Below, piece after piece: positions 15,608 through 58,861 of a stretch of DNA of 64,000 bases. This DNA comes from an uncultured virus (IMG/VR IMGVR_UViG_3300036715_002448) (lineage: Duplodnaviria > Heunggongvirae > Uroviricota > Caudoviricetes). Under the pieces are notes generated by a model. It was not told the DNA's origin. It made no database searches and saw only the letters and a list, made by a program, of their open reading frames with translations. The first letter of the stretch is position 1. Every line of letters begins with the position of its first letter. The stretch spans positions 30,164 through 94,163 of IMG/VR virus record IMGVR_UViG_3300036715_002448, one strand, 5' to 3'. The position numbers were made by a program, and so were the translations under genes.

Positions 15608-17491
15608 TTAAAAAATGTCATATATGTCTTCTACTTTTTCTCCATCTTCATAAGTTTCATAAATTTCATCTATTAATTTCTGTTTATCAGGATCTAATAA
15701 GTCAAAAAATTCTTCTACAATTTCTTCAAAGTCATTTGTTTCCAAGATTGCTGCCGCGGTTATAGAACTCATAAAAAGGTCATCATGACCTGCCTGTGCA
15801 GAATAGGTTCCATTTGGATTTCTTGAAAACATTTTAGCCTCATCTACTGTGTTCGTTTCTAATAATTGCATCCTTCCATTACCTATACATTCTCTTAAAA
15901 ATTCTGAATATAGTATTTTGTTTTCTTTTCCATAACGAATTCCTATAGATTTATGAATAGAAGTTACTCTATGTTTGAATTTAACAAAAGTTTCTTCATC
16001 AAAATCGTTTTTATGTGGATATAAAGTGATAAGATTTTTAACAAGTTCAGATCCATAAGTGTTATATTCTAACATTATTCGGATATTTTCTTGATTAAAA
16101 ATATTTACAGATAACTCATAAAGAATTTTTGCATAATCTTCACCACTAATTAAATTATTTCTAAAAACTCCAATTTGCTTTAATCCGAAAAATTTAGAAA
16201 AATTAGCCGCATTTTTGATATTCAAAATGTCACTATTTTCTAATGTAACAACTTCGAATATGTTAATAACAGAATAGTCACGTCCAACTCCTTCAGCTAA
16301 ATCAACTGAAAATACATAAAAATTAGGGGAATTGAAAAAATCATCTACATCAACATCAGGATCCCACTTTAAATTAGAATAATCTACATATATATCATCT
16401 AATGCATCAAATTCTCTAAATACAAAATCTTTTTTATTCCTATCTAAACGTAAAATTTGTTCAGCATTAAGCAATAATGAAGATGATGAAAGAAATTGGC
16501 AACCATATTGTTTGTTAAATTCTTCTTCTGACCCCAAATTGGCTATTTCACGTGCTTTCCAAGCTTCATCTCTACCTGGAACCTGCCACCAATCTACTCT
16601 TAACGGTTTATATTCGTTCATTCCGTCCAATGCATCTTGGAACAAGTCATGAAATAAATCATATCCATTAGGAGTTGATGAAATAATTACCCTTGATACT
16701 TTTGAAGAAGAAAGTGTAGGATAAATATTACCATAAAAAGGCCTTTTAATATTTTCTTGAATATGAGCAAACTCATCCAAGAATAATAAATGAATAGTAA
16801 AACTAATACCAGAAGTTTTTGTAGTGTTTTGTGTTATAATACGACATTTGTTATCAAATATCATAGTACCTACATCTTTTTTCATTATACCTGGTTTTAA
16901 GAAAAATGGAAGGCCTTCAATAATATTTCTAATTTTGTCCATAATTTCTTTTGTAGTAGCACCCTTATTCGCAATAAGTAGTGCATTTTTTTCAAATTGA
17001 AATAATGTAAACCAAATTAAAAAAATAGATGAAGTAATTGTATTATGGGAAAGTATATCATTAGTCCAATATCTGTGATCGTCTGAATTAACAGTTAAAT
17101 CAAACATTGCAACTTTTTTATTGTATTTTTCTAAAGAAGTAATAGTGGAAATTCCAGATTTTGTTATAATAGTAGACCCTATTTGAAGATCTTTAACAAA
17201 AACCTCTTTGTAATTTTTATCAAAAACTATGTGATTATCAGCACATTCTAAAAACTTACCACAGGAAGTTTTTAATTTATATATGGTGTATGGTTGTGTT
17301 TGATGTATGTTTGTAGCTGGTTGCCATCCTGAGTCAGTGTCGACAAAATAACCATCTAACTCAACAGTGTTTTGGATTTTTTTAGTTATGTCATCTTCAT
17401 CTAGTTTAGAATTTCTAAATTCATATTTTTCAATTAATTGTATAATTAATAATATAAAAAAAATTAATGGTCTTTTAAAAATTGTAAACAT
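15608..17491 (-). CDS. gp17: Split-intein C fragment (150 aa) + C-terminal part of terminase large subunit
   Basis: CADNH..FDLTV..HRYWTNDILSHN|TITSS, Walker B LFLDEFAH, SSTPNG, DLAEGVGRDYS, GHDDL. Confidence 0.95.
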   Translation of the reverse strand: MFTIFKRPLIFFILLIIQLIEKYEFRNSKLDEDDITKKIQNTVELDGYFVDTDSGWQPATNIHQTQPYTIYKLKTSCGKFLECADNHIVFDKNYKEVFVKDLQIGSTIITKSGISTITSLEKYNKKVAMFDLTVNSDDHRYWTNDILSHNTITSSIFLIWFTLFQFEKNALLIANKGATTKEIMDKIRNIIEGLPFFLKPGIMKKDVGTMIFDNKCRIITQNTTKTSGISFTIHLLFLDEFAHIQENIKRPFYGNIYPTLSSSKVSRVIISSTPNGYDLFHDLFQDALDGMNEYKPLRVDWWQVPGRDEAWKAREIANLGSEEEFNKQYGCQFLSSSSLLLNAEQILRLDRNKKDFVFREFDALDDIYVDYSNLKWDPDVDVDDFFNSPNFYVFSVDLAEGVGRDYSVINIFEVVTLENSDILNIKNAANFSKFFGLKQIGVFRNNLISGEDYAKILYELSVNIFNQENIRIMLEYNTYGSELVKNLITLYPHKNDFDEETFVKFKHRVTSIHKSIGIRYGKENKILYSEFLRECIGNGRMQLLETNTVDEAKMFSRNPNGTYSAQAGHDDLFMSSITAAAILETNDFEEIVEEFFDLLDPDKQKLIDEIYETYEDGEKVEDIYDIF

Positions 17492-18925
17492 GTGTTTATT
17501 ACATTATTTTTGTTTTGTTTTATATCGTTTTCCCAAACTTCTAAAACTTCAAATCCTTTAGAATTTGCAAATTCTATTTTTTGTTTATCATAATTCCATT
17601 TTTCCTGAGCAGTCATTTTTAAATTTTTATTATAATAATCAGCTTTATATTTTATTGGATTGCAGTGCCAATAGTCTCCATTAATTTCTATAATTTTTTT
17701 ACCAACTTTAAAATCAAACCCTATCCATTTTCCATGTTCTTCATCAAAAATTTCAAATTCATTTTCATAGCAAATTGCATCAGGATAAATTTTCAAAAGT
17801 TCACTAATAACAGTTTTTGACATGTTTGAAATTCTTGTTGAATTAATCTTTTTAGGTTTTCTAGAAAATTCACCATTTTTGTATTTTTCTTCAATCTTAG
17901 CCGACCATTTAGAATTTCTATCATTAAATCTTTTAGTTCCTTCAATTTCTCCTAGTTTAGCAATACATTTTTCTAAAGTAAATGTTTTTTGTCTTTCTGA
18001 TATTTTTTGTTTTGCTTCATCTTCCGAAAATCCTTTATTTAACCAGTATCTTTTTTGATTAGGATTAACAATATCAAATGTTTTTAAAAAATTATCTCTA
18101 TCTGTGTCATTTTTATATTTTTTAAATTTTTTTGAAAATGGACTTATAGACTGTCTTTGTTCTAAAGTTGTTTTTGATTTATGATTGTTATTCATTTCGC
18201 CAGTTCTATTAAATGATAGTCTTTTACTTTCATTTTTAGATACTATTAAAGAATTTGGATATTTTAATTTATATTTTTCAGTTGTCCAGTTGTCATGTCT
18301 TTGTAAATGAGAAAAAATTGATTTTGTAGCAACTCCGCAAATTTCACATTTAATATAATCATCAGGATATTTAATCAAAAGTTCTTTAGACTTTTCTAAT
18401 TCTATTAATTTTTTTTTAAGTTCTTTTTCTTTAGTATCATTTTTTCTACAATTGGATGAACAATATATTGCGTAACTTTTACCAAAAAAACTAGGTTCAT
18501 TGTCGCACATTTTACATTTTACAGTAGACGTTAAATTATTTTTTACATAGAAATATCTTTTTCTAATACTTGAATTAATAGGTAAAAATGATGTTAAATA
18601 GATTAGTTCATTTAACTCATTTTTGGATATTCTTGAAAATATATTACAAGATTTAGATTTTAAAATTTTTTCTTTTATGTCCATTTTGATATAAATTTGT
18701 ATTTTATTTATATATCTTTATGGATGCAAAGTTTTATGTTCTACAAGACAATTTAGTAAAAAAAGTGTATTATTTTTCTAGAATTTCTAGAATTTTATAT
18801 AATTTAACTTTTATTTTACCTAAAATAGATGGACTAATTGCACTATAATAAAAATCACCTATTGTAGTATCTTTAATTTCTCCATTAGGATATTTTATTT
18901 TAATTTTGCTATTATAAAAGGTACA
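17042..18925 (-). mobile_element. Atypically split intein + nested endonuclease cassette in terminase (IntN 18773-18925, IntC 17042-17491)
   Basis: Inserted in Walker A APRQCGK|T; Cys1, terminal HN, Thr+1. Confidence 0.9.
17464..18684 (-). CDS. Free-standing Vsr-like/EDxHD homing endonuclease nested in terminase
   Basis: Zn-finger N-terminus, YWLNKGFSEDEAK repeat, FDFKVGKKIIEINGDYWHCNP, VLEVWEND. Confidence 0.87.
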   Translation of the reverse strand: MDIKEKILKSKSCNIFSRISKNELNELIYLTSFLPINSSIRKRYFYVKNNLTSTVKCKMCDNEPSFFGKSYAIYCSSNCRKNDTKEKELKKKLIELEKSKELLIKYPDDYIKCEICGVATKSIFSHLQRHDNWTTEKYKLKYPNSLIVSKNESKRLSFNRTGEMNNNHKSKTTLEQRQSISPFSKKFKKYKNDTDRDNFLKTFDIVNPNQKRYWLNKGFSEDEAKQKISERQKTFTLEKCIAKLGEIEGTKRFNDRNSKWSAKIEEKYKNGEFSRKPKKINSTRISNMSKTVISELLKIYPDAICYENEFEIFDEEHGKWIGFDFKVGKKIIEINGDYWHCNPIKYKADYYNKNLKMTAQEKWNYDKQKIEFANSKGFEVLEVWENDIKQNKNNVINTCLQFLKDH

Positions 18926-19315
18926 CTTACCACATTGACGCGGGGCCATAAGAATATCCCATCTATTATGTTGAAATGTCCTAAGAATTTCCTCTTGGTA
19001 ATCACGGAGAGTAATTTGTTGATAACCATCATCAGTCATTACTTTACAATATGTATTTGCAAAATATACAATATCACGAGCACAATGCCTAAGTTCATCC
19101 AATTCAAATTGGCTATAATTAAATACTAATTGTCCTCGTCTAAAATTTTGGTCACCTTCATAAAAAGGATTATCTCTAGTGACATATCCTTCTTTCATCG
19201 CTAGTACAAGTTTATCAACTTTTTCAGTAGTCCATACTAGTTTATCTGCATTATCTAAGTTAATTTCTGTATCATCTTTTATTCCTGTGAATGAAGATGA
19301 TAGTGGATTTGCCAT
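18770..19315 (-). CDS. gp17: N-terminal 130 aa of terminase large subunit + split-intein N fragment (51 aa)
   Basis: CARDIVYFANTY, LRDYQEEIL, APRQCGK then CTFYNSKIKI. Confidence 0.93.
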   Translation of the reverse strand: MANPLSSSFTGIKDDTEINLDNADKLVWTTEKVDKLVLAMKEGYVTRDNPFYEGDQNFRRGQLVFNYSQFELDELRHCARDIVYFANTYCKVMTDDGYQQITLRDYQEEILRTFQHNRWDILMAPRQCGKCTFYNSKIKIKYPNGEIKDTTIGDFYYSAISPSILGKIKVKLYKILEILEK

Positions 19316-19330
19316 TTAAAGTTAATTATT

Positions 19331-19933
19331 TTATTCATCTTTTTCCTCGCCAAGCTCTTCTTGAATTTGTTGCATTAAATCACGGCTACCTCTAATAGTA
19401 ATACCATTATGGGATGAAATTTGCTTTGGACGAGATTGTCCGTTATCAGATTTATCATAGATGTCAATATCTCTTTTAAGCTTTTTCATCGATTCCTCTG
19501 TCGCAAGAATTTGAAGTGTTTGATGTTTCATAATATCAAGCATTGTACGTTGAAGCCCTGCCAAAACCTCGAACATACGAGGAGATGCATCCCCACCATC
19601 AATACTTACCATTAACAATGTAATAGCTCTATCAGCAATTTCCATTTGCTGGATTAATCCTGCCATGGTAGACGTTTCTATTTTTGCCCTAGCAGTTATA
19701 TAATCATTTTTGCTTATAAGTTCCTCGGAAAGGTAAAACTTCAACAAAGAATTCATCAAACTTTTAGCTTTATTAACTGACTTGGCTTTTATATCAACAT
19801 AATCAACTGGTTGTACAGTTTTAAATGTTGGCAATGAAGAATTCTTAGCCATTGGAAGTCCATCCGGTTCAAAATCATCTTGCAAAATAGAATCTAATGT
19901 TTCTTTTGCAATGTCTTGTTTAGTTATGTCCAT
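19331..19933 (-). CDS. Probable terminase small subunit (gp16-like)
   Basis: SPRMFEVLAGLQ motif, GSRDLMQQI tail; directly upstream of TerL. Confidence 0.65.
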   Translation of the reverse strand: MDITKQDIAKETLDSILQDDFEPDGLPMAKNSSLPTFKTVQPVDYVDIKAKSVNKAKSLMNSLLKFYLSEELISKNDYITARAKIETSTMAGLIQQMEIADRAITLLMVSIDGGDASPRMFEVLAGLQRTMLDIMKHQTLQILATEESMKKLKRDIDIYDKSDNGQSRPKQISSHNGITIRGSRDLMQQIQEELGEEKDE

Positions 19934-19981
19934 AATTTTTATTTAGTGTGCTAATCGTAGTATTCACGAAGTATTTATTAG

Positions 19982-21826: not shown

Positions 21827-21835
21827 TAAGTTAGT

Positions 21836-22306
21836 TTATTTTACACTACTAGCTTCAATAACATGTTGAACAACTGTTTGAACAGCCTCAGGATTGATTG
21901 ACTGTTTTGAAAGGTATTGAATAAACATTGTTATAGCTAATCCTGCGATAGATCCAAAAACAATCCATAGTGCTTTATTTATTCCACCTTGCCATTTTTC
22001 AATATTATCTATCCTATTTAGTATTTTTGGTAATAGTTTATTAATATCTTCGTCTTCTGTAATATGGTCTTCTATTAATTCTGTATTTTTGTTAACTTTT
22101 ACAACGACTCCGTTATCAGGATCTAATAGTCTTTTACTCAAATCAGAAACCTTTTCTCTAATAACTTTTTGTTCTTCCATTATTTCATTAACACTATTTT
22201 TAATTGAATTTAATTCACCATTTGGCAACCTCTTACGAATTTCTTCCAATTTTTTAAAAATGTCATCAAATAAATCTCCTTGCATAGAGTCTGTACTATT
22301 TGCCAT
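21836..22306 (-). CDS. Coiled-coil protein with one TM helix (XhlA/holin-like)
   Basis: Heptad region followed by ALWIVFGSIAGLAITMFIQY; class A motif upstream. Confidence 0.45.
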   Translation of the reverse strand: MANSTDSMQGDLFDDIFKKLEEIRKRLPNGELNSIKNSVNEIMEEQKVIREKVSDLSKRLLDPDNGVVVKVNKNTELIEDHITEDEDINKLLPKILNRIDNIEKWQGGINKALWIVFGSIAGLAITMFIQYLSKQSINPEAVQTVVQHVIEASSVK

Positions 22307-22374
22307 GTTATCTACATAATTTTTTATTTATATATCTAAGACAATTTACTTAAACTATGTAAAAGCAATAAAAT

Positions 22375-23029: not shown

Positions 23030-23043
23030 TATGTATAATTTAA

Positions 23044-25161: not shown

Positions 25162-25162
25162 A

Positions 25163-29819: not shown

Positions 29820-31310
29820 TTATTTTTCGAATTTTATTCCCATGTGATTATTACCTTTAGCTTCTCTTGGGTTATATTCACCGTCAAAACTAGAACAAGT
29901 AAAAGTTTTGTAAGGATTTATACTTACACCAAGAATTTCCATAAATTTACGATTTACTAAAAATTTAGTACTTTTATCAGTTCTATCAACTAATGATACT
30001 AATACATTTTTATACCTTTTACCTAAAAATACAACATCCATTTCAATTATTGGCCTTTCGTGTACATTAGGTCCTACTTCAGCATTAGAAATTCCTACTA
30101 CTTTACTTGTAAAATGTTTTCCATTAATAGACCATTCAACAGTTTTCTTATTATCTGAAACTTCCATTTTATCATAAGTCATTGAACAAGAAATAGCACC
30201 ATTACCTGTATCAAATTTGGCTACAAATTCACCAATTCCTGGAACTTGAACAACTTCACGGAATCCAATAACTTTTCTTGAACGAATCCAGTTAGACTTA
30301 TCGGTAAAATAGTCAATTATATTTTTAACCACATCTATTCCTGTAGCATCTTTAAGTCCTTGTGTACCTGGTGAAGAATTAACTTCTAACACGTAATTTT
30401 GTTTTGATTTTTTATCAACAATAATATCTACACCAGCCCAATTACATCCAACTGCCCTCGCTGCATCAATTGCCATTTGTGATTGCTCTGGTGTTATTTT
30501 AACCTTTTCTGCTTTTCCACCTAAAGAAACATTTGTACGAAAATCTTTATCAATTTTATTTCTACGCATAAAACCTAAAACAACAGAGTCATCTTCAGAA
30601 GGTTTTGGTGAATTAAATTTACGAGTAAGAACATGTATTCTTAAATCATAGTCGGAGTCAATTTTTTCTTGAATAAGAGTTTCGATATCTGCGTCAACTT
30701 TCCAAAGTGTTTGAAGAACTGATTTAAGAGAAGCTTCCGATTCAATAACAGAAACACCAATACCATGTGAACCAGATAACATTTTAAGAATAACTGGAAA
30801 TTTTCCACCTATTTTTTTAACAGCTCCATCGATAGAGTCCTCCCCGTTGATTAGCGCTGTTCTTGGTGTTTGAATTCCGGAATTTTCTAGGATTTTTGCA
30901 GTAACCCATTTATTTTCACAATTTAAAGTAGATTGTAAAGTATTAACTACAAAGAAATTTAAGTCTTCTAATCTTTCTACTAAGTCACGTGTACGAGTAT
31001 TTCTTACAATACCGCGGCGTGTTAAAATTGCTGTATAATCTGAATCAATTTTTACAGAATTTTCTTTATCTGCTAAAAGTAATCCACCATTTTTTAAAAT
31101 TGTTAAAGTTGCTGTATTAATATCAATTACATAAAAAGGAATTCCTCTAGAATCACATTCCTTTTTAACAGCAGGAACAGTATAAGATTCTTCGCTAACA
31201 TTTGATAAAAGAACAATTTCTGCTTTTTGTTTTTTAGAAGCATTTGTTTTTTTTACAGTATTTATTGCTTCATTTACAAACTCGTCATAATAGTTAAATT
31301 TATTTTTCAT
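29820..31310 (-). CDS. RimK-family ATP-grasp ligase fused to a retropepsin-like (DTG) protease domain
   Basis: GSHGIGV, QEKI, DLRIHV, DFRTNVSLGG, AGVDII, LEVNSSPG; C-terminal AKFDTGNG; CTS-like N-terminus. Confidence 0.88.
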   Translation of the reverse strand: MKNKFNYYDEFVNEAINTVKKTNASKKQKAEIVLLSNVSEESYTVPAVKKECDSRGIPFYVIDINTATLTILKNGGLLLADKENSVKIDSDYTAILTRRGIVRNTRTRDLVERLEDLNFFVVNTLQSTLNCENKWVTAKILENSGIQTPRTALINGEDSIDGAVKKIGGKFPVILKMLSGSHGIGVSVIESEASLKSVLQTLWKVDADIETLIQEKIDSDYDLRIHVLTRKFNSPKPSEDDSVVLGFMRRNKIDKDFRTNVSLGGKAEKVKITPEQSQMAIDAARAVGCNWAGVDIIVDKKSKQNYVLEVNSSPGTQGLKDATGIDVVKNIIDYFTDKSNWIRSRKVIGFREVVQVPGIGEFVAKFDTGNGAISCSMTYDKMEVSDNKKTVEWSINGKHFTSKVVGISNAEVGPNVHERPIIEMDVVFLGKRYKNVLVSLVDRTDKSTKFLVNRKFMEILGVSINPYKTFTCSSFDGEYNPREAKGNNHMGIKFEK

Positions 31311-33815: not shown

Positions 33816-34413
33816 CTATTTATAGTACTTAATAAAAACATCTGATCCTGCATCATATATTCTTCTATAACCATTTAATTGAATACAAATAACTTGAAGT
33901 ACCATTGTTTTTTAAAAATGTTTTAGCTCTTTTATCTTGTATTAATTTAGATTGTAGTGGACTTTCTACCCCATATTTATTTAACATGGTTTTTTTATTT
34001 TCATTTGTACTTCTTTGTTTTGTAAAGAACAAGTACTCCCGTATTTTAATAGATTAGTTTTTTGTATTTTATCTTTAGTTGATTGTAGTACACTTGTATT
34101 TTTTATACCATATCGTTCCATGTTAGATTTAACATATGATTCAGTTCTATTTCTATCTACACAAATTTTAGAATTACATGTTTTCAAATAACCTTTTGAA
34201 AAACTATTGAATTTTTTAGGTTTGCCACAACTACATAAAGGTATTTGATCTAATTTTTCTTTTATTAACCACAATTTTTTCACTATAACAAGACGCTCCT
34301 ACAAACATATTATCAATATATTCTTTGTTGTGTTTATATATTGATAAAGTAGATTTTGGAGAGGCTATTAGTCTATTAATAATATCATTCAATTTGAAAG
34401 TATCTTGGCTCAT
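33816..34413 (-). pseudogene. Decayed stand-alone homing endonuclease downstream of the major capsid gene
   Basis: Frameshifted pieces: MSQDTFK.., PLCSCGK..KTCNSKIC, ERYGIKNTS/LKYGSTCSLQ repeats, and a detached tail NGYRRIYDAGSDVFIKYYK; nuclease core apparently deleted. Confidence 0.75.
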
Positions 34414-34476
34414 AAAGTTTAATATATTGTTTTTATTTATATCAAAATTTAATAAAAGTTTTAGATTTTTAAACAA

Positions 34477-47712: not shown

Positions 47713-49629
47713 TTATTGAATAGCTTCTTTTTGCAATTGGCTAAAACCACCAACTTTAATAATTTCAACTCTTTTATCAAAAAGTTCCATAGGCAATTCG
47801 CTATGATTTATTACCCAAGTATTCAATTCATATTCTTTAGTAATTTCTTGAAGAATTTTTATTATTTCATATACACCTGCTGCATCAACAGAAGAGAAAA
47901 TCTCATCAAGGAAAAGTAAATTAAGTGTAGGATATTGAATTTTTAAAATTTTAAGTAATGCAATAATAATAATAAAGTCGGCACGTTTCCTTTCGCCAGT
48001 TGACATGCTTAATGGATTTATTTGTTCACCGATTGAAGTAATTACACAGTCAAACTTATCATCAAATTTAATAACATAAGGTAAGTGAACTTGATTAATC
48101 ATCATATTAATATTTTGATTAAGAGTAGGTAGTATAGTTTTCATTGCTAAATTCTTAACACCATCATCGCCTAAAATGTATTCAAGAATTTCCAAGAAAG
48201 AATCTTCCGTTAAATACTCTGTTTGTTTAACTTTCCTGTCGCTTATTTTAACTGTATTTTCGTCTAATAATTCATTAAGACTGTTTTTATCAGTTTCTTT
48301 ATCTTCATTAACTATTTTTTCCGCTTCTTCTCTGTATTGAGTTATTAAAATAGATGATTTTGTAGAAATACCATATTGTTCTTTTACTTTTATTGCTATA
48401 GCTTTTATTTTTTTATCTAATTCTAATAGCTCATTTTTTACTTCATTTACAATAAATTCCTTTTCTCCTAATTGTTGTTCTAATGTTTGTTTATTATGAA
48501 CATGTGAATCTGTTGTTAAAGGTGCTCCACATGTAGGACAAGTGTCATTTTGATATAATCTAATTTTTTCTTTAATTGTTTTTAGTTCATGGTGTAAATT
48601 ACCTAATGATTGTTTTTTGTTTTCCAATAATTCTGTTACCTTAGTCTCTAATTGAGTCAATTTAGCATAGTCTTCATCTACTAATTTTTTAGAGTTTAAC
48701 AATTCTTGAATTTTGGTTTTGTAATCAGCAATTAGCTTATTTTTATCATTTTTTTTAAAATTTTCTAATTTTTTAATTCGATCTGTTATAGAAATTATCG
48801 TCGAATCAATGATATTTAACTCGTCATAAATTGTTTTAAGTTTTTCTTTTATTTCTTTTCTTTCATTTTTTATTTGGTCCTTCATTTCATTAATTACAGA
48901 AAATCCAAACAACCTATCAATAATATTTCTTTTATCAAGAGGCGTCATTGTTAAAAATGAACGAAAGTCATTTATAGAAAGAACAACTATATTCTTGAAA
49001 ACGTGATAAGGAATGTCGAAAATTTCATTGTCAAGATAATCTTGCACGTTATTGTTACCTGCCGTATCATACTCAATTCCATCAATTTCTACTTTTAGAA
49101 ATGTGGGAGCAATACCTCTTGTAATTTCTACACTTTTATTTTTAGATAAAAGATGTATTTTGCATTGAAGATTTTTGTTAATTCTATTAGGTAAGTCAGT
49201 TTTCTTTTTCTTTTCAATACGACCATACATAGCATATATAATAGCTTCCGCAATGGTTGAATTGTGGGATACAAATCCATTAGCATAAAATTCTTTTACA
49301 TCTGAAACTTGTATATCTAATAAATCTTTAGTTTCATTTAATAATTCAATACTTGTTATTATTTCTATGCCATCTATAGTTTCAATACTATCACCTACTT
49401 TAAAATCTTTTATTTTTTTCCAATTTTTATAAAATAATAAATGATCCGGCGAACCTATTATTGATTTATTTTTTGTTGATATTTTTATACATTTGCTATT
49501 TTTTGCAGTTATTGCAATAGCTTCAACATGTTTTAATCCAATTCTTGTATTAACCTCTATTTTATTATTAGATATTGCATTTGTCAATTTTTCAAATTCC
49601 AACAAATCTCCTAATGTACAATTTATCAT
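47713..49629 (-). CDS. gp46: Split-intein C fragment (123 aa) + C-terminal part of gp46 (Rad50/SbcC-like ATPase)
   Basis: SPDH..DIQV..FYANGFVSHN|STIAEAI; zinc hook CPTCG; MSTGE; LFLDEIFSSVD; INH. Confidence 0.93.
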   Translation of the reverse strand: MINCTLGDLLEFEKLTNAISNNKIEVNTRIGLKHVEAIAITAKNSKCIKISTKNKSIIGSPDHLLFYKNWKKIKDFKVGDSIETIDGIEIITSIELLNETKDLLDIQVSDVKEFYANGFVSHNSTIAEAIIYAMYGRIEKKKKTDLPNRINKNLQCKIHLLSKNKSVEITRGIAPTFLKVEIDGIEYDTAGNNNVQDYLDNEIFDIPYHVFKNIVVLSINDFRSFLTMTPLDKRNIIDRLFGFSVINEMKDQIKNERKEIKEKLKTIYDELNIIDSTIISITDRIKKLENFKKNDKNKLIADYKTKIQELLNSKKLVDEDYAKLTQLETKVTELLENKKQSLGNLHHELKTIKEKIRLYQNDTCPTCGAPLTTDSHVHNKQTLEQQLGEKEFIVNEVKNELLELDKKIKAIAIKVKEQYGISTKSSILITQYREEAEKIVNEDKETDKNSLNELLDENTVKISDRKVKQTEYLTEDSFLEILEYILGDDGVKNLAMKTILPTLNQNINMMINQVHLPYVIKFDDKFDCVITSIGEQINPLSMSTGERKRADFIIIIALLKILKIQYPTLNLLFLDEIFSSVDAAGVYEIIKILQEITKEYELNTWVINHSELPMELFDKRVEIIKVGGFSQLQKEAIQ

Positions 49630-50910
49630 TTTAATTTTAATTTTTTAAGTAATTTAAGCATTTTTGTAAAGTATTTTCTTTGTTTTCATTATAATCGATT
49701 TCCCAAATAGTAAGAACATCATATCCATTTATTTTAGCTAATTCTATTTTTAAATTATCCATGTCCCATTTTTCTTTGGCTGTTATTTTCAAACCTCTTA
49801 TAACATCAGTTGATTTATGCATTAATGGATTAGCATGCCAATAGTCACCATTAAATTCTATTATCTTATTATTATATGTAAAATCATAGGAACATTTTAG
49901 CTTACCATCCTTAGAACTAATCCACTTTTCTTTTTTAGGAATTTCTATGTTTAATTCTTTACAAATTAATGCAATTATTTCATTAGCAAATTTAGAAGAA
50001 GGAGACCTACTGTCACCTTGTTCATTAAAATTTTTATGTAATGATTTAATCCATTTTTCCTGCCTATTATTATATTTTTTTGTTCCTTCAATAATTCCTA
50101 GTTTTTCAATACATTTTTCAAGAGTAAATGTTGATTGACGTTCTTTTAATTTTTGTTTAGCTTCTTCTATTGAAAACCCTTTTTTAATCCAGTAATTTAG
50201 TTGAGTTGGCAACGTGGCAATATATTTTTCTGGATTTTCCTTTCTTTTCTTAGAAAATTTTAAAGCTTGTTTTCGTTGAAATTCAGAAACCTTTAAAATA
50301 GATTCTTCCTTAGAAAATCCTTTTTTGATATAATAGTAAATACTATTTGGTGAATTTTCTAATTGCTTTATAGCAGAATCTTCTGTAGAAAATCCTTTCG
50401 CTTTCCAGTATTTTAAACAAATCGGACCTCCATTAGACTTGTACCTTTCTGGATTAATTAAACGTTTTTTTATCAGTTTATCAGAATTATTTTTTTGCAA
50501 GTCACTTATTACCTTTTTTGCATATTCAATAGAATGTCCTCGTAATGTATAGTATTCAGTATTTAGTGACGAAGGTTGTTTTCCATTATTTTCAGATTTA
50601 ATATAATTACTTAATGTTTTTATTAAAATATAAGTAGGAATTTCATCTACTGATAATCCTAATTTTTCTATAGTATCAAATAATTTTACAGAATTCCATT
50701 TTTTAAAAAAATCAATTTCTAATAAATTCCTATTTTTTAACTTTGCTAAGTCAGTTTTCATTATGCTTTTTTATTTATATATCTTTTAAAGCATGGATAT
50801 TCTGGTATAGGCAAACAAAATAATTATTTATTTTTTAGAAATTCTAAAAATTGGTTTCTTACTATATCATCTTTTATATTAATTTCTAATTTTGTACTAG
50901 GGTCTAGACA
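49261..50910 (-). mobile_element. Atypically split intein + nested endonuclease cassette in gp46 (IntN 50827-50910, IntC 49261-49629)
   Basis: Inserted in Walker A GQSGIGK|S; Cys1, HN, Ser+1. Confidence 0.9.
49637..50761 (-). CDS. Free-standing Vsr-like/EDxHD homing endonuclease nested in gp46
   Basis: Four Y(W/Y)xx(K/R)G(F/H)S repeats, FTLEKCIEKLG, YDFTYNNKIIEFNGDYWHANP, VLTIWE. Confidence 0.87.
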   Translation of the reverse strand: MKTDLAKLKNRNLLEIDFFKKWNSVKLFDTIEKLGLSVDEIPTYILIKTLSNYIKSENNGKQPSSLNTEYYTLRGHSIEYAKKVISDLQKNNSDKLIKKRLINPERYKSNGGPICLKYWKAKGFSTEDSAIKQLENSPNSIYYYIKKGFSKEESILKVSEFQRKQALKFSKKRKENPEKYIATLPTQLNYWIKKGFSIEEAKQKLKERQSTFTLEKCIEKLGIIEGTKKYNNRQEKWIKSLHKNFNEQGDSRSPSSKFANEIIALICKELNIEIPKKEKWISSKDGKLKCSYDFTYNNKIIEFNGDYWHANPLMHKSTDVIRGLKITAKEKWDMDNLKIELAKINGYDVLTIWEIDYNENKENTLQKCLNYLKN

Positions 50911-51033
50911 TTTACCAATACCTGATTGTCCGTGTAATAAATATAACATACCTTCTTTTGTGTCGAAGTTAAGTTCTTGTTCTACATTGCCATAGCTATT
51001 AAAATTTTTGAAACGTAAGTTCAAAATTCTCAT
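50824..51033 (-). CDS. gp46: N-terminal 41 aa of gp46 + split-intein N fragment (28 aa)
   Basis: FKNFNSYGN, GQSGIGK then CLDPSTKLEI. Confidence 0.92.
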   Translation of the reverse strand: MRILNLRFKNFNSYGNVEQELNFDTKEGMLYLLHGQSGIGKCLDPSTKLEINIKDDIVRNQFLEFLKNK

Positions 51034-52169: not shown

Positions 52170-52170
52170 C

Positions 52171-52599
52171 TTAAAATAATCTGTAATTTTTTTGTAGAAA
52201 GCCTCTAGTTCTTAATTCCTTAATAAGCTCATCTTTAAATGTATTAGAAAGAGACTCATAAAATTTAGATTGATTTAAATCTAAAATCTCTACCAATACT
52301 GAAAAAATTTCAATTAAATATTCTTGGTTAAATTTGTTTTTGCAAAAGCTGTAAATTTCATTTAATTCTAATTTAGAAATTTTTGAAAATTTACGTTCTT
52401 TGTTTGGCGTTATGTATTTTTTTAATTTTTCATCTGCTTCAAAATATTCCATAATTTTTTCATAGACCTTTTCTTCATCCATTTTTGTATCATAGGAATC
52501 TACTTTAGCAAAATCATCTACATCAAATGAAATTGGAGATCCATCTCCATACGATTCATAAAATGAGTTAAAAAATATTTTATCGTTATCTTGAACCAT
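52171..52599 (-). CDS. Hypothetical protein, possibly a gp33-like late co-activator
   Basis: YLIEIF..FYESLSNTFKDELIKEL weakly resembles the gp33 core. Confidence 0.4.
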   Translation of the reverse strand: MVQDNDKIFFNSFYESYGDGSPISFDVDDFAKVDSYDTKMDEEKVYEKIMEYFEADEKLKKYITPNKERKFSKISKLELNEIYSFCKNKFNQEYLIEIFSVLVEILDLNQSKFYESLSNTFKDELIKELRTRGFLQKNYRLF

Positions 52600-52613
52600 T
52601 ATTTTATTTTATT

Positions 52614-53768
52614 TTATACAATATTGTCAGCCATTATTACTTCATCAGTTTCTATCAGTCTCATATAGCTGTATTGAACATTATATTTACACTTCATATT
52701 CTTCCCTGCACCATTCCTTACTTTAAGAAGCTTAAGCCAATACTCGTTTCTAATTTGCATTTCTGGTATTTGGATAATTCCTAACAATACATCCACAGTG
52801 TGAGCTAGTGCTGCAGATTCAGAAATATCCGACATATTAACATTAGCAGAGTCCCATCCTTGTTTTCCAAATTGTGTTGCAGTTATAACTAACCAATTAT
52901 TTCTAATTGCCATAGCTCTTAAATCTTCGGCAATTTGTTTAATTTTCATATAAGTATTTTCTGAATTAGGATTACGATAATTCATCAAAATATTTATATA
53001 ATCGATTATTATAACTTGAAATTTTATTCCTTTAGCTACTTCTAATTCTCTTAAATATAATTCAACATCCGGGACTGATGCAGCTGATGTTGCAAATTCT
53101 TTAACATGAAGTTGACCTGGTGGAATAATTCCATTTGATATATTCAAAAGCTTATTTTTTATATAATCTTGCTTTTTAGACATTTTTTCATAATCTTCTA
53201 TTTTAATATCTAATAAATTAGCACCCATACGTTGATTATAATTAACTTCCGACATTTCAGCAGTTATAACAGCAACATTATTCCCAGCTCTTGAGTGATT
53301 TACTGCTTCGTTTGCCAAGAAAATAGAATTGTGTGAAAGTATATCATTTGTCCAATATCTATGATTTTCATCATCAACTTGAATGTCATACATATTTTCA
53401 AAATATCCTAAATTAGAGACTTTTTCTACCGTATCTAATCCTGTTTTTGTAACAATTTTATCATATCTTGGATCTTTACTAAAATTATTTAAATCTTTTA
53501 CAAAAGTTTCCCTCCACAATTCATTAAAAACAATATGAGTATCGGCACACTTTAATTTTTTACCTTGATTAGTTTCCAATTCCCAAACTTCATAAGGAAC
53601 AGTTTTTCCAATTCCTTTAATCGAAGACCATCCTTTATCGGTTTCTATTTCCCAATCATAAATTTCAAAATAGTCTTCGTATTTATGTTCTACTAAGTCA
53701 GAAGGTTTTATTTCTAAATTAGGTTTTGTAAAAAGTTCTAACAACTCATTAAATTGATTATCGGTCAT
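52614..53768 (-). CDS. gp41: Split-intein C fragment (147 aa) + C-terminal part of DnaB-like replicative helicase
   Basis: CADTH..YDIQV..HRYWTNDILSHN|SIFLANEA; TAEMSE, IIDYINI, IAEDLR, TATQ, SESAAL. Confidence 0.94.
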   Translation of the reverse strand: MTDNQFNELLELFTKPNLEIKPSDLVEHKYEDYFEIYDWEIETDKGWSSIKGIGKTVPYEVWELETNQGKKLKCADTHIVFNELWRETFVKDLNNFSKDPRYDKIVTKTGLDTVEKVSNLGYFENMYDIQVDDENHRYWTNDILSHNSIFLANEAVNHSRAGNNVAVITAEMSEVNYNQRMGANLLDIKIEDYEKMSKKQDYIKNKLLNISNGIIPPGQLHVKEFATSAASVPDVELYLRELEVAKGIKFQVIIIDYINILMNYRNPNSENTYMKIKQIAEDLRAMAIRNNWLVITATQFGKQGWDSANVNMSDISESAALAHTVDVLLGIIQIPEMQIRNEYWLKLLKVRNGAGKNMKCKYNVQYSYMRLIETDEVIMADNIV

Positions 53769-55139
53769 TTATATTTAATTTAAAAATTCTATGCATTTTT
53801 CTATAACTTGTTTTTTATCTTGTTTAAAATCTGATTCCCAAATAGTCAAAACTGTATAATTATAAGAATTAGCTAATTCAACTTTTTGCTTATCTATCTC
53901 CCATTTTTCATAAGCAAATTTTTTAGTTCGTTTATTAAAATAGTCTTTGTCGTATATACTGGGATTCATGTGCCAAAAGTCGCCATTAATTTCTATAATT
54001 TTTTTGCCAACTTTAAAATCAAAACCCATCCGTTTTCCACGTTCTTCATCGAAAATTTCAAATTCATTTTTATAACACATTGCATCTGGATAAAATTTTA
54101 ATAATTCATCAATAACAGTTTTTGAAATGTTTGAAATTCTAGTAGAATTAATCGATTTTGGTTTTTTTGAAAACTCTCCATTTTTATACTTAGATTCAAT
54201 TTTAGCAGACCATTTAGAATTTCTATCATTATATTTTTTTATTCCTAATTCTTCTCCATATTTAGCAATACATTTTTCTAAAGTGAAAGTTTTTTGACGT
54301 TCTTTAACAAATTGTTTAGATTCTTCCTCGGAAAATCCTTTATTTAACCAATACTGTATTTGATTTGGTCTTTTAGCATTTTTAAAATAATTTGGGTTTC
54401 GTTTGTTCCATTTTATTATTCCAGCACTTCGTTTTTTGCCAATTTCTAACATTTTTTGTTTAGCTTCATTTTCAGTTAAACCCATTTTAATATAAGTTTC
54501 AACCGTTTGTCGGCCAAAATTACCAGTTTCTTTTTTTGTTTTTAAAGATTTTTCTTGAATTTTATTAGTTGTAATCTTTAATTTATTTTTTGCATCTTCT
54601 AGTGAAAACCCTTTATTAAGTAAAAAATCTATTGAACAAGTTCCAAACTTTTTAGAACGAATATCTTTAATTTGCTCGATATTCCAACCTCTATCCAACC
54701 AATATGCTTCATTTTGTGCATGTGTCGAATAAATTCCTAAACAATTAAATGCACTAAAACGAGTGTTGTATGTTTTAAAGTCTTGTTTTGTTATAAGTTC
54801 AAAATACTTAGTTGAATATGACTCGTATAAATTTTCAAAATATGTATGATTTTCTAAATTTAAGTTTAAAATACAAGATTGTACTATAGTAACAAATTCA
54901 GTAAAACAAACAGGAATAGTTTTCCAATTAGTATATTTTTTTCGTAATTTGTTTAATTTAAAATCACAGTATAAATCTTGAAGTACCATAAGTTTTATTT
55001 TATATCTAAGCAAGTGAACGAAATATAGGGAAAAAGCCAATTATTTCTTAACTAAGTTGTAAAATTTTTCTATAGATATATTTAAAATTTCTAGTGTTTT
55101 TGTATTACGGATTTTAATAATAGTATCTTTATGGGCACA
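53328..55139 (-). mobile_element. Atypically split intein + nested endonuclease cassette in gp41 (IntN 55044-55139, IntC 53328-53768)
   Basis: Inserted in Walker A GEPNIGK|S; Cys1, HN, Ser+1. Confidence 0.9.
53775..54989 (-). CDS. Free-standing Vsr-like/EDxHD homing endonuclease nested in gp41
   Basis: YWLNKGFS repeats, FDFKVGKKIIEINGDFWHMNP; ATG 54989 preferred over TTG 55040 because a class A variant lies just upstream. Confidence 0.87.
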   Translation of the reverse strand: MVLQDLYCDFKLNKLRKKYTNWKTIPVCFTEFVTIVQSCILNLNLENHTYFENLYESYSTKYFELITKQDFKTYNTRFSAFNCLGIYSTHAQNEAYWLDRGWNIEQIKDIRSKKFGTCSIDFLLNKGFSLEDAKNKLKITTNKIQEKSLKTKKETGNFGRQTVETYIKMGLTENEAKQKMLEIGKKRSAGIIKWNKRNPNYFKNAKRPNQIQYWLNKGFSEEESKQFVKERQKTFTLEKCIAKYGEELGIKKYNDRNSKWSAKIESKYKNGEFSKKPKSINSTRISNISKTVIDELLKFYPDAMCYKNEFEIFDEERGKRMGFDFKVGKKIIEINGDFWHMNPSIYDKDYFNKRTKKFAYEKWEIDKQKVELANSYNYTVLTIWESDFKQDKKQVIEKCIEFLN

Positions 55140-55730
55140 CTTACCTATATTGGGTTCACCAGCGTAAGCAACTAAAGTTCCTAATGAATATCCGCCTAAT
55201 AAAGAATCTATCCAATTGTGATTAGAAGAAAATTTAGTACCAGCAGGAGTTATATGTGACTCAGGATTAAAAAAGTCACTACCTAAATTTGTATTAAAAG
55301 ATATCGAATTTCTTTCATTAATAAGTGTTTTTACTTTGTTAATAACATCCTTTACATTATTTGGGTCTACTTTAACAGTCTTTACATATTCAATTGTATC
55401 TACCAATGATTTATCTAATGACTTCCATAGTACCCAAGCTTGACAAGTTTCAGTCAACCAATCTGGATCATAGTCACTTAACTTTTCATCAAAAACAACA
55501 TTTATAATACTTTCTGATATTTGGGTTTTAAATTGTGCTTGATTAGCTAATGTTTTTAATTGAGCTACCGAAGGAACCTGGTTAAACCTTTCATAAAATT
55601 GTTTTGTAATATTATGAAGGACTGAAAGCTGTTTATTTTCATAAAAAGACTCAACTACGTTTTTTAAGTATTTTGGATTTTCTCTTGTATAAAGATAAAA
55701 AATTTTTTCAAAAGCATCAGAACCAACCAT
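55041..55730 (-). CDS. gp41: N-terminal 197 aa of gp41 helicase + split-intein N fragment (32 aa)
   Basis: LGSDFF, IDSLLGG, AGEPNIGK then CAHKDTIIKI. Confidence 0.92.
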   Translation of the reverse strand: MVGSDAFEKIFYLYTRENPKYLKNVVESFYENKQLSVLHNITKQFYERFNQVPSVAQLKTLANQAQFKTQISESIINVVFDEKLSDYDPDWLTETCQAWVLWKSLDKSLVDTIEYVKTVKVDPNNVKDVINKVKTLINERNSISFNTNLGSDFFNPESHITPAGTKFSSNHNWIDSLLGGYSLGTLVAYAGEPNIGKCAHKDTIIKIRNTKTLEILNISIEKFYNLVKK

Positions 55731-55796
55731 ATAAGATATTTATTAAGTTATTTAGAAATTATATGCACCAGAATGACTAAAGTTTACAAAAATAAC

Positions 55797-55820
55797 AAAA
55801 GGTACTCTTTCGAGTACCTT
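55797..55820 (-). terminator. Intrinsic terminator
   Basis: Minus strand AAGGTACTC-GAAA-GAGTACCTTTT. Confidence 0.8.
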
Positions 55821-56130
55821 AATAATCAAATTTTAAAATTTTATAAACCTTTTTCCTTGGTGGGGCTACATTACCGGACTCTATGAGAGTGTTAAGAAGT
55901 TTATCGGTTTTTTCTTTGTCATTATCCAGATATTGCAATAAAAAATTGTATACAAAAAAATGACCCGTTGGATCATTTTCACTAATCCTTCGTTGTTCTA
56001 ACGCCGCCATTTGTGTTGAACTACTTATCCAATCTAAATAAAAGTATTCAAAATCTTCTATTGTTGGAAAATTAGGGTCACTTTTATATGACCCTAATAT
56101 GTACTTTAATTTTAAGTTTTTCAAATCCAT
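55819..56130 (-). CDS. Hypothetical protein
   Basis: ORF start overlaps the UvsX stop codon. Confidence 0.6.
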   Translation of the reverse strand: MDLKNLKLKYILGSYKSDPNFPTIEDFEYFYLDWISSSTQMAALEQRRISENDPTGHFFVYNFLLQYLDNDKEKTDKLLNTLIESGNVAPPRKKVYKILKFDY

Positions 56131-57602
56131 TAGTCAACATTTAGTTCTCCTGAGTCATCAATTAAGTCATCTAGATATTCATCTGTAATTTCATCATCTA
56201 ATCCATAAGTAAACCTTGGTTTGATGCATTTTTCATTAATGGCTTCTAATACTTCTTGGTTAAAAACTTCCGCGGTAAACAATTTACTTGGAGGAATTCC
56301 TTCTCCTAAATGTTTAACAATAAAATTACGAGCAGTTTCTTTAGGTGTAAAATACACTAATTCCCCTGTTTTAGCATTAAAAGGTTGTGCTAAAGTTTTG
56401 TCTTTATCATTTAGCTTTTCATATTCTTTTGCTGTTAGTATGTTTCCTTTTTGAATTCCACAAACATTCCAAGAAATATATTCTTCCATTCCAATATAAG
56501 GATTCATACCCATATCCCATCTAATATGTAGTTTAATAGATTGAGGTTTAACATAACGATTTTTTAACGCAGTTGCAGTAACAATAATGCCTGTTTGAAC
56601 AGCCCCATCTTTTAATTTTGCTTTTGATAAATTAACAATAATAGAAGGTGCGTAAATAATACCTCCACCACCTGAAATATTAACAGAAGGAAAAATTCCA
56701 ACTGACGCGTATGTATGGTTCGACATAATCATGGGAATACCTAAACAAGATAAGTCAGAAGTAATAATACGAAACAATGATCTAATTATCTTAGCACGTG
56801 TCATATCTGCAGCAGTATTACCACCTAATGCATCATCAATTTCTTTAGTAGTCGCTAACATACCTAAAGAGTCTAAGAAAATTGCAATCTTTGGAATTTG
56901 AAAACCTTTTTCTTTAGCTTCCATTAATTTTTTAACTAAAGTAGTAATAGAAGTTCTAAACTTAGCTAAATCTGACATTGGTTGATGATCAAATTTTGTA
57001 CCATCAATATCAAATCCTTTAATAGAGTCAACATCAATAGCACCTTCAGTATCATAATAAACTACATAATAACCAAGTTCTTGTGCATTTCTTGCTATAT
57101 TTAACATTGCAAAAGTTTTTGCTGTGTTATGTGAAGATATTCCATCACACCAATATCTATGATTTTCATGTAAAACTTCCCAATCATACACTTCTTCTTC
57201 CCCAATTTCAACATTGCTAATTACCTTTTGATAGCCTGTATTAGTTAAAATTAAGTCACCAACTTTTAAATTTTTAGTAAATTCAAAATCGAGATTAAAT
57301 CTACTTTCTATTAAATGATCTTCCGAAACTTTGATTTTTTTATCAATTGTTTCTAATTGAAAAATCTTCCTTGGTTTTTTAATAAAAAAGTCACCTAACA
57401 ATTGATAACCATCTGGTGTATCTATTAAAAAATTAGAATTTGTATAATTTAAAACTAAATCGCCTGCTTCAACAAATTCGCTGTATTTTTCACAATGCAA
57501 ATCAAAAATACGGTCAAAGTCTTCACTTGCAATAGCTTGAATTTTTTCAATATCCCATTCAGGATACATTAGCAATTCTTTTATTTTTTCTTTTTTTGTC
57601 AT
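56130..57602 (-). CDS. uvsX: Split-intein C fragment (~159 aa) + C-terminal part of UvsX/RecA-like recombinase
   Basis: SEDH..VYDWEV..HRYWCDGISSHN|TAKT; YDTEGA, FLDSLGML, DMTRAK, NHTY, SGGGG; ATG 57602 or TTG 57611. Confidence 0.93.
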   Translation of the reverse strand: MTKKEKIKELLMYPEWDIEKIQAIASEDFDRIFDLHCEKYSEFVEAGDLVLNYTNSNFLIDTPDGYQLLGDFFIKKPRKIFQLETIDKKIKVSEDHLIESRFNLDFEFTKNLKVGDLILTNTGYQKVISNVEIGEEEVYDWEVLHENHRYWCDGISSHNTAKTFAMLNIARNAQELGYYVVYYDTEGAIDVDSIKGFDIDGTKFDHQPMSDLAKFRTSITTLVKKLMEAKEKGFQIPKIAIFLDSLGMLATTKEIDDALGGNTAADMTRAKIIRSLFRIITSDLSCLGIPMIMSNHTYASVGIFPSVNISGGGGIIYAPSIIVNLSKAKLKDGAVQTGIIVTATALKNRYVKPQSIKLHIRWDMGMNPYIGMEEYISWNVCGIQKGNILTAKEYEKLNDKDKTLAQPFNAKTGELVYFTPKETARNFIVKHLGEGIPPSKLFTAEVFNQEVLEAINEKCIKPRFTYGLDDEITDEYLDDLIDDSGELNVD

Positions 57603-58861
57603 TTTATACAATTTTATTTTTTATAAATTCTATGCATTTTTCTAATTTAAAAGGATCATCATCCCATACAACAAGCAAATCGTATCCTTTTTGAATTATT
57701 AAATTATTTTTATAATTATCGAAAATTAAATTATCAAAATAATTCATTTTTTTTAATGGGTTAAACCAAGTTAATTTTTCTTCTTCGGTTGCATCTGGTT
57801 TAGGATGAAATGTTGTTCCATTGTATTCTATTGCTATTTTTTTAGAAGGTATAACAAAATCATAAAAATATAATCGTTTTGTTAAATCATCATAAATAAA
57901 ATATTCAGGGTTATTAAAATATACATCATCAATACATAAATTTAAAGAAGAAATAATAGACTCAAATAATTTAATTGAAACACTTGATACTCTAGGTAAT
58001 CTTAGCCTTTGTTTTATTTTAATTTGGTTTTTATCTTCATCGGATTTGGAATTCATTGTAGATCTCCATTTAATCTGCCTTTCTATAAATTTATTAGTTC
58101 CTATTTCCTTTCCATATTTTAATATACAATTTTCTAATGTAAAAGCACCTTGTAACTTTCTTTCTACTAATGCATTTTTAGCATCTTGTAAGTCCAGTCC
58201 TTTGTTTAAATAATACTTTAATTGCATGTTTGTTAACATTTCTTTGGTACCATTTTTATGATTTTTCCAAAGATTAACAAATCCAGTTCTTTGTTTATTA
58301 TAAATTTTTTCTCTTGCTTCTATTTCGGTAAATAACAAATTAGTATTAGGATTAATTTTGTCTAAATAAAATTCCCATCTATTGCTATTACCCTTAGACT
58401 TATTTATTTTATCTAAATTTGGATTATTTTTTAATGTTGATTGTATTTTTTTTGCTATTTCTATATTACAAGTTGCCTGCAATTTTTTTATTTTTGATAA
58501 TCCAAATTCTTCGCTATATCCTCTATCTAAATAGTACTTTAAATTTCTACAATTAGGATGTAATTTTAAAAGTTTATAAGGATTACCAAAATTACGTTTT
58601 TTATAATTATCATACAAATGGAAATTTTCACAATAAAACTTATATAAATTTTTTAAAACAGTTAAATTAGGATTATCTGAAAAATTACAACTTATTTGTA
58701 TATTTTTATGAAATTCTAAAATATCTACAGGATTTTTTTTATGTATTGTTTTATTTTTAACAGAGTTTTCAAAATATAAATCACATATTGATAATTTTGT
58801 GTTTTGCATTAGGATTAGATTTTATTTTATATATCTTTATCCTTTGATTTTTTTGTACACA
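57126..58861 (-). mobile_element. Atypically split intein + nested endonuclease cassette in uvsX (IntN 58784-58861, IntC 57126-57602)
   Basis: Inserted in Walker A GESG|TAKT; Cys1, HN, Thr+1. Confidence 0.88.
57604..58809 (-). CDS. Free-standing Vsr-like/EDxHD homing endonuclease nested in uvsX
   Basis: YYLDRGYS/YYLNKGLD repeats, FYDFVIPSKKIAIEYNGTTFHP, LLVVWD. Confidence 0.85.
   Translation of the reverse strand: MQNTKLSICDLYFENSVKNKTIHKKNPVDILEFHKNIQISCNFSDNPNLTVLKNLYKFYCENFHLYDNYKKRNFGNPYKLLKLHPNCRNLKYYLDRGYSEEFGLSKIKKLQATCNIEIAKKIQSTLKNNPNLDKINKSKGNSNRWEFYLDKINPNTNLLFTEIEAREKIYNKQRTGFVNLWKNHKNGTKEMLTNMQLKYYLNKGLDLQDAKNALVERKLQGAFTLENCILKYGKEIGTNKFIERQIKWRSTMNSKSDEDKNQIKIKQRLRLPRVSSVSIKLFESIISSLNLCIDDVYFNNPEYFIYDDLTKRLYFYDFVIPSKKIAIEYNGTTFHPKPDATEEEKLTWFNPLKKMNYFDNLIFDNYKNNLIIQKGYDLLVVWDDDPFKLEKCIEFIKNKIV

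Follow-up and report, generated by a model that had tools for sequence, protein, structure and literature searches.

The window described here is a 64,000-nucleotide stretch (positions 30,164 to 94,163) of the uncultured-virus record IMGVR_UViG_3300036715_002448, a 94-kb entry of IMG/VR. It has a G+C content of ∼28%, all of its genes lie on the minus strand, and the gene content is of the T4 type, with replication, recombination, and packaging proteins. Six genes are interrupted: those for TerL, the Rad50-like protein gp46, gp41, UvsX, the family-B DNA polymerase, and the gp52 topoisomerase subunit each consist of two open reading frames (ORFs) that flank a third one of 330-421 aa, and all six carry a split intein. 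The polymerase and gp52 inteins are canonical, with a long N-terminal fragment (IntN) and a short C-terminal one (IntC), whereas those of TerL, gp46, gp41, and UvsX are split atypically. That the window holds four atypically split P-loop inteins in fractured genes is close to certain; what the extra protein segments found at their break points might do is the subject of this report. The parts of the four loci, in window coordinates, are the following.

15608-17491, minus strand: TerL C-part, IntC and then the C-extein from T
17042-17491, minus strand: TerL IntC, 150 aa; a head of ∼44 aa (17360-17491) with a hydrophobic helix (...IIQLIEKYEFRN) and a DDITKKI linker helix, then β3 and blocks B, F, and G
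17464-18684, minus strand: free-standing endonuclease gene in the TerL break; passes the Pfam DUF559 (Vsr-like fold) cut-off with E=1.5e-4 and 22 bits; a homolog of the five further nested endonucleases
18770-19315, minus strand: TerL N-part, ending ...PRQCGK/C plus 50 aa
18773-18925, minus strand: TerL IntN, 51 aa (Cys1 ... EILEK); core β1-β2-α1 to about ...GDFYY, then a 24-aa predicted-helix tail (18773-18844)
49261-49629, minus strand: gp46 IntC, 123 aa; almost direct start with the canonical strand and α1 (MINCTLGDLLEF)
49637-50761, minus strand: endonuclease gene in the gp46 break, recognized by homology among the nested ORFs
50824-51033, minus strand: gp46 N-part, GQSGIGK/C
50827-50910, minus strand: gp46 IntN, 28 aa; β1-β2 (CLDPSTKLEINIK) and a 15-aa helix-like tail DDIVRNQFLEFLKNK (50827-50874); S1 split
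53328-53768, minus strand: gp41 IntC, 147 aa; a 35-aa head (53664-53768) with a lineage-specific helix MTDNQFNELLELF and a family-wide helix of the RKFxExF type LVEHKYEDYFEI
53775-55040, minus strand: endonuclease gene in the gp41 break, recognized in the same way; an internal ATG may be the true start
55041-55730, minus strand: gp41 N-part, GEPNIGK/C
55044-55139, minus strand: gp41 IntN, 32 aa; β1-β2-α1 (...SIEKFYNLVKK) and no real tail; S2 split
57126-57602, minus strand: UvsX IntC, 159 aa, counted from the ATG at 57602; a three-helix module of ∼40 aa (57483-57602) at the start, then α1 and a HINT core resembling that of VidaL
57604-58809, minus strand: endonuclease gene in the UvsX break, again recognized by homology among the nested ORFs
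58781-59074, minus strand: UvsX N-part, GESG/C
58784-58861, minus strand: UvsX IntN, 26 aa; β1-β2 (CVQKNQRIKIYKIK) and a 12-aa tail SNPNAKHKIINM (58784-58819); S1 split

All four loci have the marks of inteins. Cys1 comes directly after the Walker A residues of the N-extein (PRQCGK in TerL, GQSGIGK in gp46, GEPNIGK in gp41, and GESG in UvsX), and each IntC closes with SHN, followed at position +1 by Thr in TerL and UvsX and by Ser in gp46 and gp41. The block B His is present in every IntC, within CADNH (TerL), SPDH (gp46), CADTH (gp41), and SEDH (UvsX); the Thr position of the TxxH motif is occupied by Ser in gp46 and UvsX and by Ala in TerL and gp41, and VidaL aligns CAFNH at this place. Each intein is distributed over two ORFs, with an IntN devoid of block B and an IntC that contains blocks B, F, and G. 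By ORF translation, the IntN of TerL, gp46, gp41, and UvsX measure 51, 28, 32, and 26 aa, and the IntC 150, 123, 147, and 159 aa. A preliminary description of this DNA had proposed four atypically split inteins in Walker A loops, and the present analysis reproduces the lengths given there and finds motifs and HINT homology intact. In UvsX, the two exteins adjoin on the solved structure 9gbg, the N-part reaching residue 65 and the C-extein starting from residue 67, so that the intein alone interrupts the P-loop.

Natural atypical breaks are known at two sites, S1 (after β2; VidaL, PolB16) and S2 (after α1; AceL and GOS TerL), with IntN of 15-37 aa (PMC13014065, 2026). The two split positions noticed earlier in the window correspond to these published sites: gp46 and UvsX are broken at S1, and TerL and gp41 at S2. 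For UvsX, the model places the break upstream of α1 (IntC residues 46-52), and for gp46 the IntC opens with a strand and α1 (TLGDLLEF), as in contiguous relatives. For TerL, α1 (residues 146-157) precedes the junction in the model of a contiguous relative, P0186; for gp41, α1 (SIEKFYNLV) is within the IntN, and ∼25 related IntN and the contiguous L070 are alike in this respect.

With regard to the fold, the HINT horseshoe is seen in a model for the UvsX IntC only, and for TerL, gp46, and gp41 it is assigned by sequence homology. The AlphaFold2 model of the UvsX IntC has a predicted local distance difference test score (pLDDT) of 92 and a predicted template modeling score (pTM) of 0.81. Its best match is VidaL (Foldseek E=1.7e-10, root-mean-square deviation 1.4 over 104 columns; VIA Z=18.8), and many other inteins reach VIA Z values of 14-16. 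By sequence, the same IntC matches VidaL (6vgv) with E=1.3e-13 and 32-36% identity, and gp41-1 with E=2.7e-6. The TerL IntC matches gp41-1 (E=5e-4), VidaL, and Cat (CatC E=0.05), while Pfam Intein_splicing gives sub-threshold matches in the gp46 and gp41 IntC. Among TerL, gp41, and UvsX, the IntC are 31-40% identical, with nearly identical C-terminal blocks (HRYWTNDILSHN / HRYWCDGISSHN); the core IntN sequences of the four inteins are already strongly divergent. We assign all four to class 1 and to a single broad HINT lineage of phages, the VidaL/gp41-like one; they are inserted in the P-loops of essential ATPases. As Novikova is said to have reported in 2016, inteins cluster in P-loops.

The genes nested in the breaks complete the picture. 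In all four loci a free-standing endonuclease ORF, of 374-421 aa and on the same strand, lies between the ORFs of the intein halves. The six nested ORFs of the window are mutually homologous, with 25-59% identical residues over 235-372 aligned positions in pairwise local alignments. This is the arrangement of the fractured genes described by Dassa et al. in 2009, where phage genes of DNA metabolism are interrupted by a free-standing endonuclease gene, Vsr-like or GIY-YIG, with split-intein halves on either side of it on the same strand (PMC2677866). The TerL, gp46, gp41, and UvsX loci are fractured genes in that sense, and the nested genes are putative homing endonucleases.

The preliminary description had also pointed to segments at the new termini that do not look like HINT sequence. 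The tail sequences it quoted are all present as written, as is the extension of ∼40 aa on the UvsX IntC, which is predicted to form three helices, and these segments do fall outside the minimal HINT core. Translation of the IntC from a point downstream of them, which it had named as a possible objection, is not what was found: the IntC starts are the only ATG, GTG, or TTG starts available upstream of the tails, and the relatives use the same Met. The distribution of the segments is less even than first suggested. TerL carries substantial ones on both fragments; in UvsX and gp41 they are almost wholly on the IntC, and in gp46 on the IntN. As to their conservation, the expectation stands for TerL, UvsX, and gp46, where they are kept under protein-level selection, but not for the gp41 head helix MTDNQFNELLELF, which is restricted to close relatives.

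The TerL IntC head recurs in 30 viral loci, and it was scored by inspection in the best 120 listed protein clusters, of 718 hits at E≤1e-3. A hydrophobic helix of the LIxLIEKYEYRN type followed by LDEDDIxKKI is kept in 119 of these 120 best relatives, the exception being P0156. Relatives with no more than ∼48% overall identity have the stretch IQLIEKYEFRN exactly as in the window; since the codons of the head vary synonymously at most positions while the residues are fixed, selection acts at the protein level. The IntN tail (in the window ILGKIKVKLYKILEILEK) is retained as LTxLEKIKIKLYNILYKLQ in relatives whose IntN measure 53-56 aa, and the motif L(T)xLEKIKxKLYxILYKL recurs in at least 12 distinct loci. 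Tail and head are both kept at L002 and L010, where the halves are 44-45 nt apart and no endonuclease is present. In six contiguous TerL clusters, the tail is joined directly to the head; in the model of one of them, P0186, the equivalents of tail and head are helices 162-170 and 176-193, with a five-residue turn between them. Two other TerL lineages (L082:3001-3435 and L100:1663-2100) have a short IntC head and IntN tails of 59 and 45 aa that are unrelated to this one and do not look helical.

In the UvsX IntC model, the head folds as helices 3-10, 18-22, and 26-39, at pLDDT 95-97. Apart from VidaL, the solved inteins have no aligned part before residue ∼37 (VIA alignments start at ∼37-42), and neither Foldseek nor VIA returned any match to the model that spans residues 1-36. 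A head of at least 45 aa before β3 occurs in 71 of 73 split relatives, with the consensus IIxELxxYxEYxxxxLxxLSxxELxxxFNxHCxKYS. Among viral and metagenome loci, this long head goes together with an IntN of 22-34 aa in 34 of 34 distinct pairs, and the short, VidaL-like head with an IntN of 15 aa in five of five. The final nine codons of the window IntN overlap the endonuclease start; an IntN of 26 aa also occurs where no endonuclease follows (L044, L143), which speaks against a tail that solely carries start signals for that gene. On the IntC side, the listed ORF opens three codons earlier, at a TTG, and the relatives begin at the Met (57602). Contiguous UvsX relatives with the same insert are P0054, P0067, P0076, L048, and L147. 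Many UvsX C-parts (P0005, P0011, P0015, P0021, P0040, P0060) contain one or two further contiguous inteins downstream of that in the P-loop.

For gp46, where 292 cluster representatives are related to the IntC at E≤1e-3, the segment is a single tail on the IntN. Related IntN have 26-29 aa and a tail-helix pattern (I/V)xKxFxxF(L/A), and the length of the split IntC is nearly fixed, at ∼122-127 aa. The tail helix is found upstream of α1 in contiguous relatives such as P0297; minimal contiguous ones (P0349) do without it.

The gp41 family has IntN of 31-41 aa, with the consensus C..xTxIKIRNKKTGxIxEIxIGDFFNLIK. The RKFxExF helix, located just before β3, is an element of the whole family, and in the contiguous L070 it stands in tandem with α1. 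Most IntC begin 0-5 residues before this helix; the more N-terminal helix of the window is shared by close relatives only. At the other extreme, P0059, P0074, P0079, L068:3152-, and L108/L118 have IntC heads of up to ∼110 aa with a helix-turn-helix-like stretch, e.g., ...LSKYLNISEQTISKILN.... Scans of viral contigs for close relatives gave no match for the gp41 or UvsX IntC; alignment-based scans did find relatives.

How stable is the split state itself? Unrooted FastTree trees built from the intein core and C-extein count six state changes for six contiguous rows of 120 in TerL, three for three contiguous rows of 76 in UvsX, and 14 (at least seven of them forced by supported branches) for 18 contiguous rows of 81 in gp46. 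The state flips repeatedly at one fixed site. The extra segments are private neither to this phage nor to the split state, for contiguous relatives carry the same sequences as one insert. Taking these relatives as firm proof that the segments predate the split was considered and rejected: contiguous forms are rare and scattered among split ones on the trees, and they may equally be secondary re-fusions. Some intein halves are encoded by two ORFs whose spacer of just 6-150 nt holds no endonuclease gene (L002, L010, L044, L054, L143, L047, L075, L099, L102, L107, L117). These are split inteins in which the nested gene was lost or was never present, and the segments are kept in them.

Considered together, what do these elements suggest? 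The explanation we judge the best, and hold to be probable, is that of split P-loop inteins whose halves dock and whose break points bear mostly helical segments shared by whole families. After translation, the short IntN would dock into the nearly complete IntC and complete the HINT fold; splicing would then take its standard course, with acyl shift at Cys1, transfer to Thr/Ser+1, and Asn cyclization, and the Walker A loop would be rebuilt. The extra segments are translated, mostly helical elaborations at the break, old and family-wide rather than additions of this phage. It is likely, to a similar degree, that those of TerL, UvsX, and gp46 are functional parts of the intein that aid the assembly of the halves. 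In TerL, one helix per half would most likely pair as a hairpin and raise docking affinity; this pair is the clearest candidate for a docking zipper, with a conserved helix on either fragment and the possibility of direct fusion of the two. UvsX would use a folded three-helix IntC module together with the co-occurring IntN tail of 8-20 aa, and gp46 a single IntN helix, while the lineage-specific N-terminal helix of gp41 is probably dispensable.

Several points count against this explanation. Contacts of the helices with one another or with the partner, and the gain in affinity that these would bring, are an inference, and trans-splicing activity of the four inteins is assumed from their intact motifs. 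In the P0186 model, the first helix (the TerL tail) and the turn reach a pLDDT of only ∼60-66, as compared with up to 86 for the second (the head). The co-occurrence of tail and head in UvsX may reflect just two clades. Amphipathicity is weak: in a helical-moment test, itself weakly informative, only the gp41 head (p=0.015) and the TerL tail (p=0.07) rise above shuffled sequences. The unrelated TerL tails of L082 and L100 indicate that tails at S2 can be mere linkers, and the GOS-TerL IntN stays active when trimmed from 37 to 27 aa, so such tails can be dispensable (review PMC11766414).

Another question is whether the tails, rather than simply aiding assembly, are dedicated to partner recognition and prevent cross-reaction among the co-resident split inteins, four atypical and two canonical. 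The setting makes this attractive. Six split inteins would share one cytoplasm; the IntC of TerL, gp41, and UvsX are alike; and TerL and gp41 have their split site in common and differ mainly by the TerL hairpin, with 40% identical IntC and a recently duplicated endonuclease in common. Other contigs also combine TerL, gp41, and UvsX versions, e.g., the 217,261-bp contig of P0004, P0093, and P0140, and the IntN of AceL and GOS TerL are interchangeable (PMC11766414), so that the risk of cross-reaction is real. However, segments on both halves are confined to TerL, most relatives lack the gp41 head, the UvsX module folds on its own IntC in the model, partner absent, and the IntN cores of the four differ strongly without any tail. 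Dedicated recognition is a plausible but tentative idea, which we would not expect to prevail. The same doubt applies to the larger proposal that the break-point modules are natural heterospecific docking devices (the TerL hairpin; the UvsX three-helix module with the IntN tail) that make up to six inteins orthogonal; we regard it as possible, with the odds against it.

Perhaps the helical segments serve the large fragment itself, by stabilizing or solubilizing the incomplete HINT fold or by capping the empty groove until the IntN comes, and have no part in recognition. On its own, the UvsX IntC is modeled as a single compact domain with a confidently predicted head, the modules are kept in contiguous forms that need no partner search, and the TerL head is strongly hydrophobic (<H>=0.40). 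Such a role does not account for the IntN tails of TerL and gp46, which sit on the small fragment, and the UvsX IntN tail always accompanies the long head, which suggests joint action. Taken over all the inteins, stabilization is about as doubtful as dedicated recognition; for UvsX alone, it is as good an alternative as a role in docking or specificity.

The segments might instead be neutral scars or linkers, left by insertion of endonuclease genes that were occasionally lost again and tolerated in a surface loop. The gp41 head, variable or absent, would fit, as would the unrelated IntN tails of other TerL lineages, the dispensable tail of GOS-TerL (PMC11766414), and the frequent interconversion of split and contiguous forms (6, 3, and 7-14 tree changes). 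A scar would hardly behave as the IQLIEKYEFRN-type TerL head does, which is among the best-conserved parts of the intein despite synonymous change, nor would it be conserved and confidently folded like the UvsX module or survive the absence of the endonuclease; we consider this reading improbable. Last, a DNA-level role for the conserved stretches (endonuclease target site, promoter, or start signals) is very hard to sustain, for although the last UvsX IntN codons overlap the endonuclease start and homing endonucleases target conserved coding DNA, the TerL head codons vary synonymously around fixed residues, an 85-nt gap separates the TerL IntN stop from the endonuclease start, and tail length and pattern are kept in loci that have no endonuclease ORF.

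Some further features of the window deserve mention. The two canonical splits, with their nested genes, are located as follows.

59091-62026, minus strand: fractured family-B DNA polymerase gene; canonical split, nested endonuclease ORF at 60017-61237
6714-9540, minus strand: fractured gp52 topoisomerase gene; canonical split, nested endonuclease ORF at 7939-8931

The closest relatives inside the window are the TerL and gp41 inteins, with 40% identity in the IntC. Their nested endonucleases share 157 of 265 aligned residues (59%); identity is visibly higher toward the C-terminus, and the N-terminal halves differ. The likeness of both endonuclease and intein suggests a recent movement of the cassette between two P-loops. 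At 33865-34476 (minus strand), small overlapping Cys-rich ORFs (...CSCGKPKKF...CNSKIC...) resemble the N-terminal part of the nested endonucleases, and they may represent what is left of an endonuclease gene close to the region of the major capsid gene.

The interest of these inteins is partly practical. Short-IntN, atypically split inteins are wanted for protein semisynthesis and for live-cell protein editing, and few natural ones have been characterized. The present data place S1- and S2-split P-loop inteins in large natural families of T4-like phages (TerL, gp41, UvsX, gp46), many of them bearing conserved helical modules exactly at the break, a feature missing from the characterized examples. 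The suitability of the short IntN for semisynthesis, put forward in the preliminary description, does not extend to TerL, whose 51 aa are not short by that standard. Where several of them coexist in a genome, one must ask how cross-splicing is avoided, and the question becomes testable. The frequent change between split and contiguous forms at one fixed position is also relevant to the way in which endonuclease genes break inteins. If the modules do act as heterospecific docking devices, they would supply, ready for use, a natural collection of orthogonal splicing pairs with short IntN, and recognition would follow another principle than the electrostatic "capture and collapse" of DnaE-type inteins. 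The arrangement, the split sites, the insertion in P-loops, and a UvsX S1 intein are already published. In the literature surveyed we did not find described conserved helical modules at the break, S2 IntN of 51-56 aa, an S1-split Rad50-like gp46 family, or four atypically split inteins in one genome, although a prior description of any of these is possible.

It remains to set the window beside the systems already known. In the fractured genes of Dassa et al., all but one of the inteins are split canonically, the other being a terminase intein broken at an unusual point (PMC2677866), whereas here four of the six in one genome are atypical, in the P-loops of TerL, gp46, gp41, and UvsX. The intein gp41-1 (6qaz) has a related phage HINT core, which matches the TerL and UvsX IntC of the window, but its split is canonical, with a long IntN and a short IntC, and it occupies a different site in gp41. 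Precedents for elements at the break points come from cysteine-less polymerase inteins with Ser1. The Aes123 PolB1/CL intein has an optional insertion in the S2 region (β4-β5), and the PolB16 OarG intein is naturally split at S1 with an IntN of 15 aa; in these two, however, the insertions are β-strands or lie elsewhere (T84-D101 in PolB16) and are not helical modules at the break.

AceL-TerL, GOS-TerL, and the consensus Cat intein (6dsl) share with the TerL intein of the window the host protein, the S2 break, a short IntN, and an IntC with block B, and GOS-TerL likewise comes from a fractured gene. Their sequences match that of the window only weakly, as the value for CatC indicates. They have Cys at +1 instead of Thr, an IntN of 25-37 aa, and an IntC of 104-115 aa without the two-helix insert, as compared with 51 and 150 aa here; the TerL IntN thus exceeds the published range of natural atypical ones (PMC13014065).

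The nearest counterpart is VidaL, the UvsX intein from the Lake Vida metagenome, which has in common with the UvsX intein of the window the host protein, the P-loop site, the S1 break after β2, and a block F/G of the form HxNHRYxxDGIxSHN. VidaL has an IntN of 16 aa and no head, while the window intein has an IntN of 26 aa and ∼36-40 extra residues, modeled as three helices, before the core. Among the UvsX relatives, the VidaL-like short forms, with an IntN of 15 aa and a head of 26-29 aa, make up a separate group.

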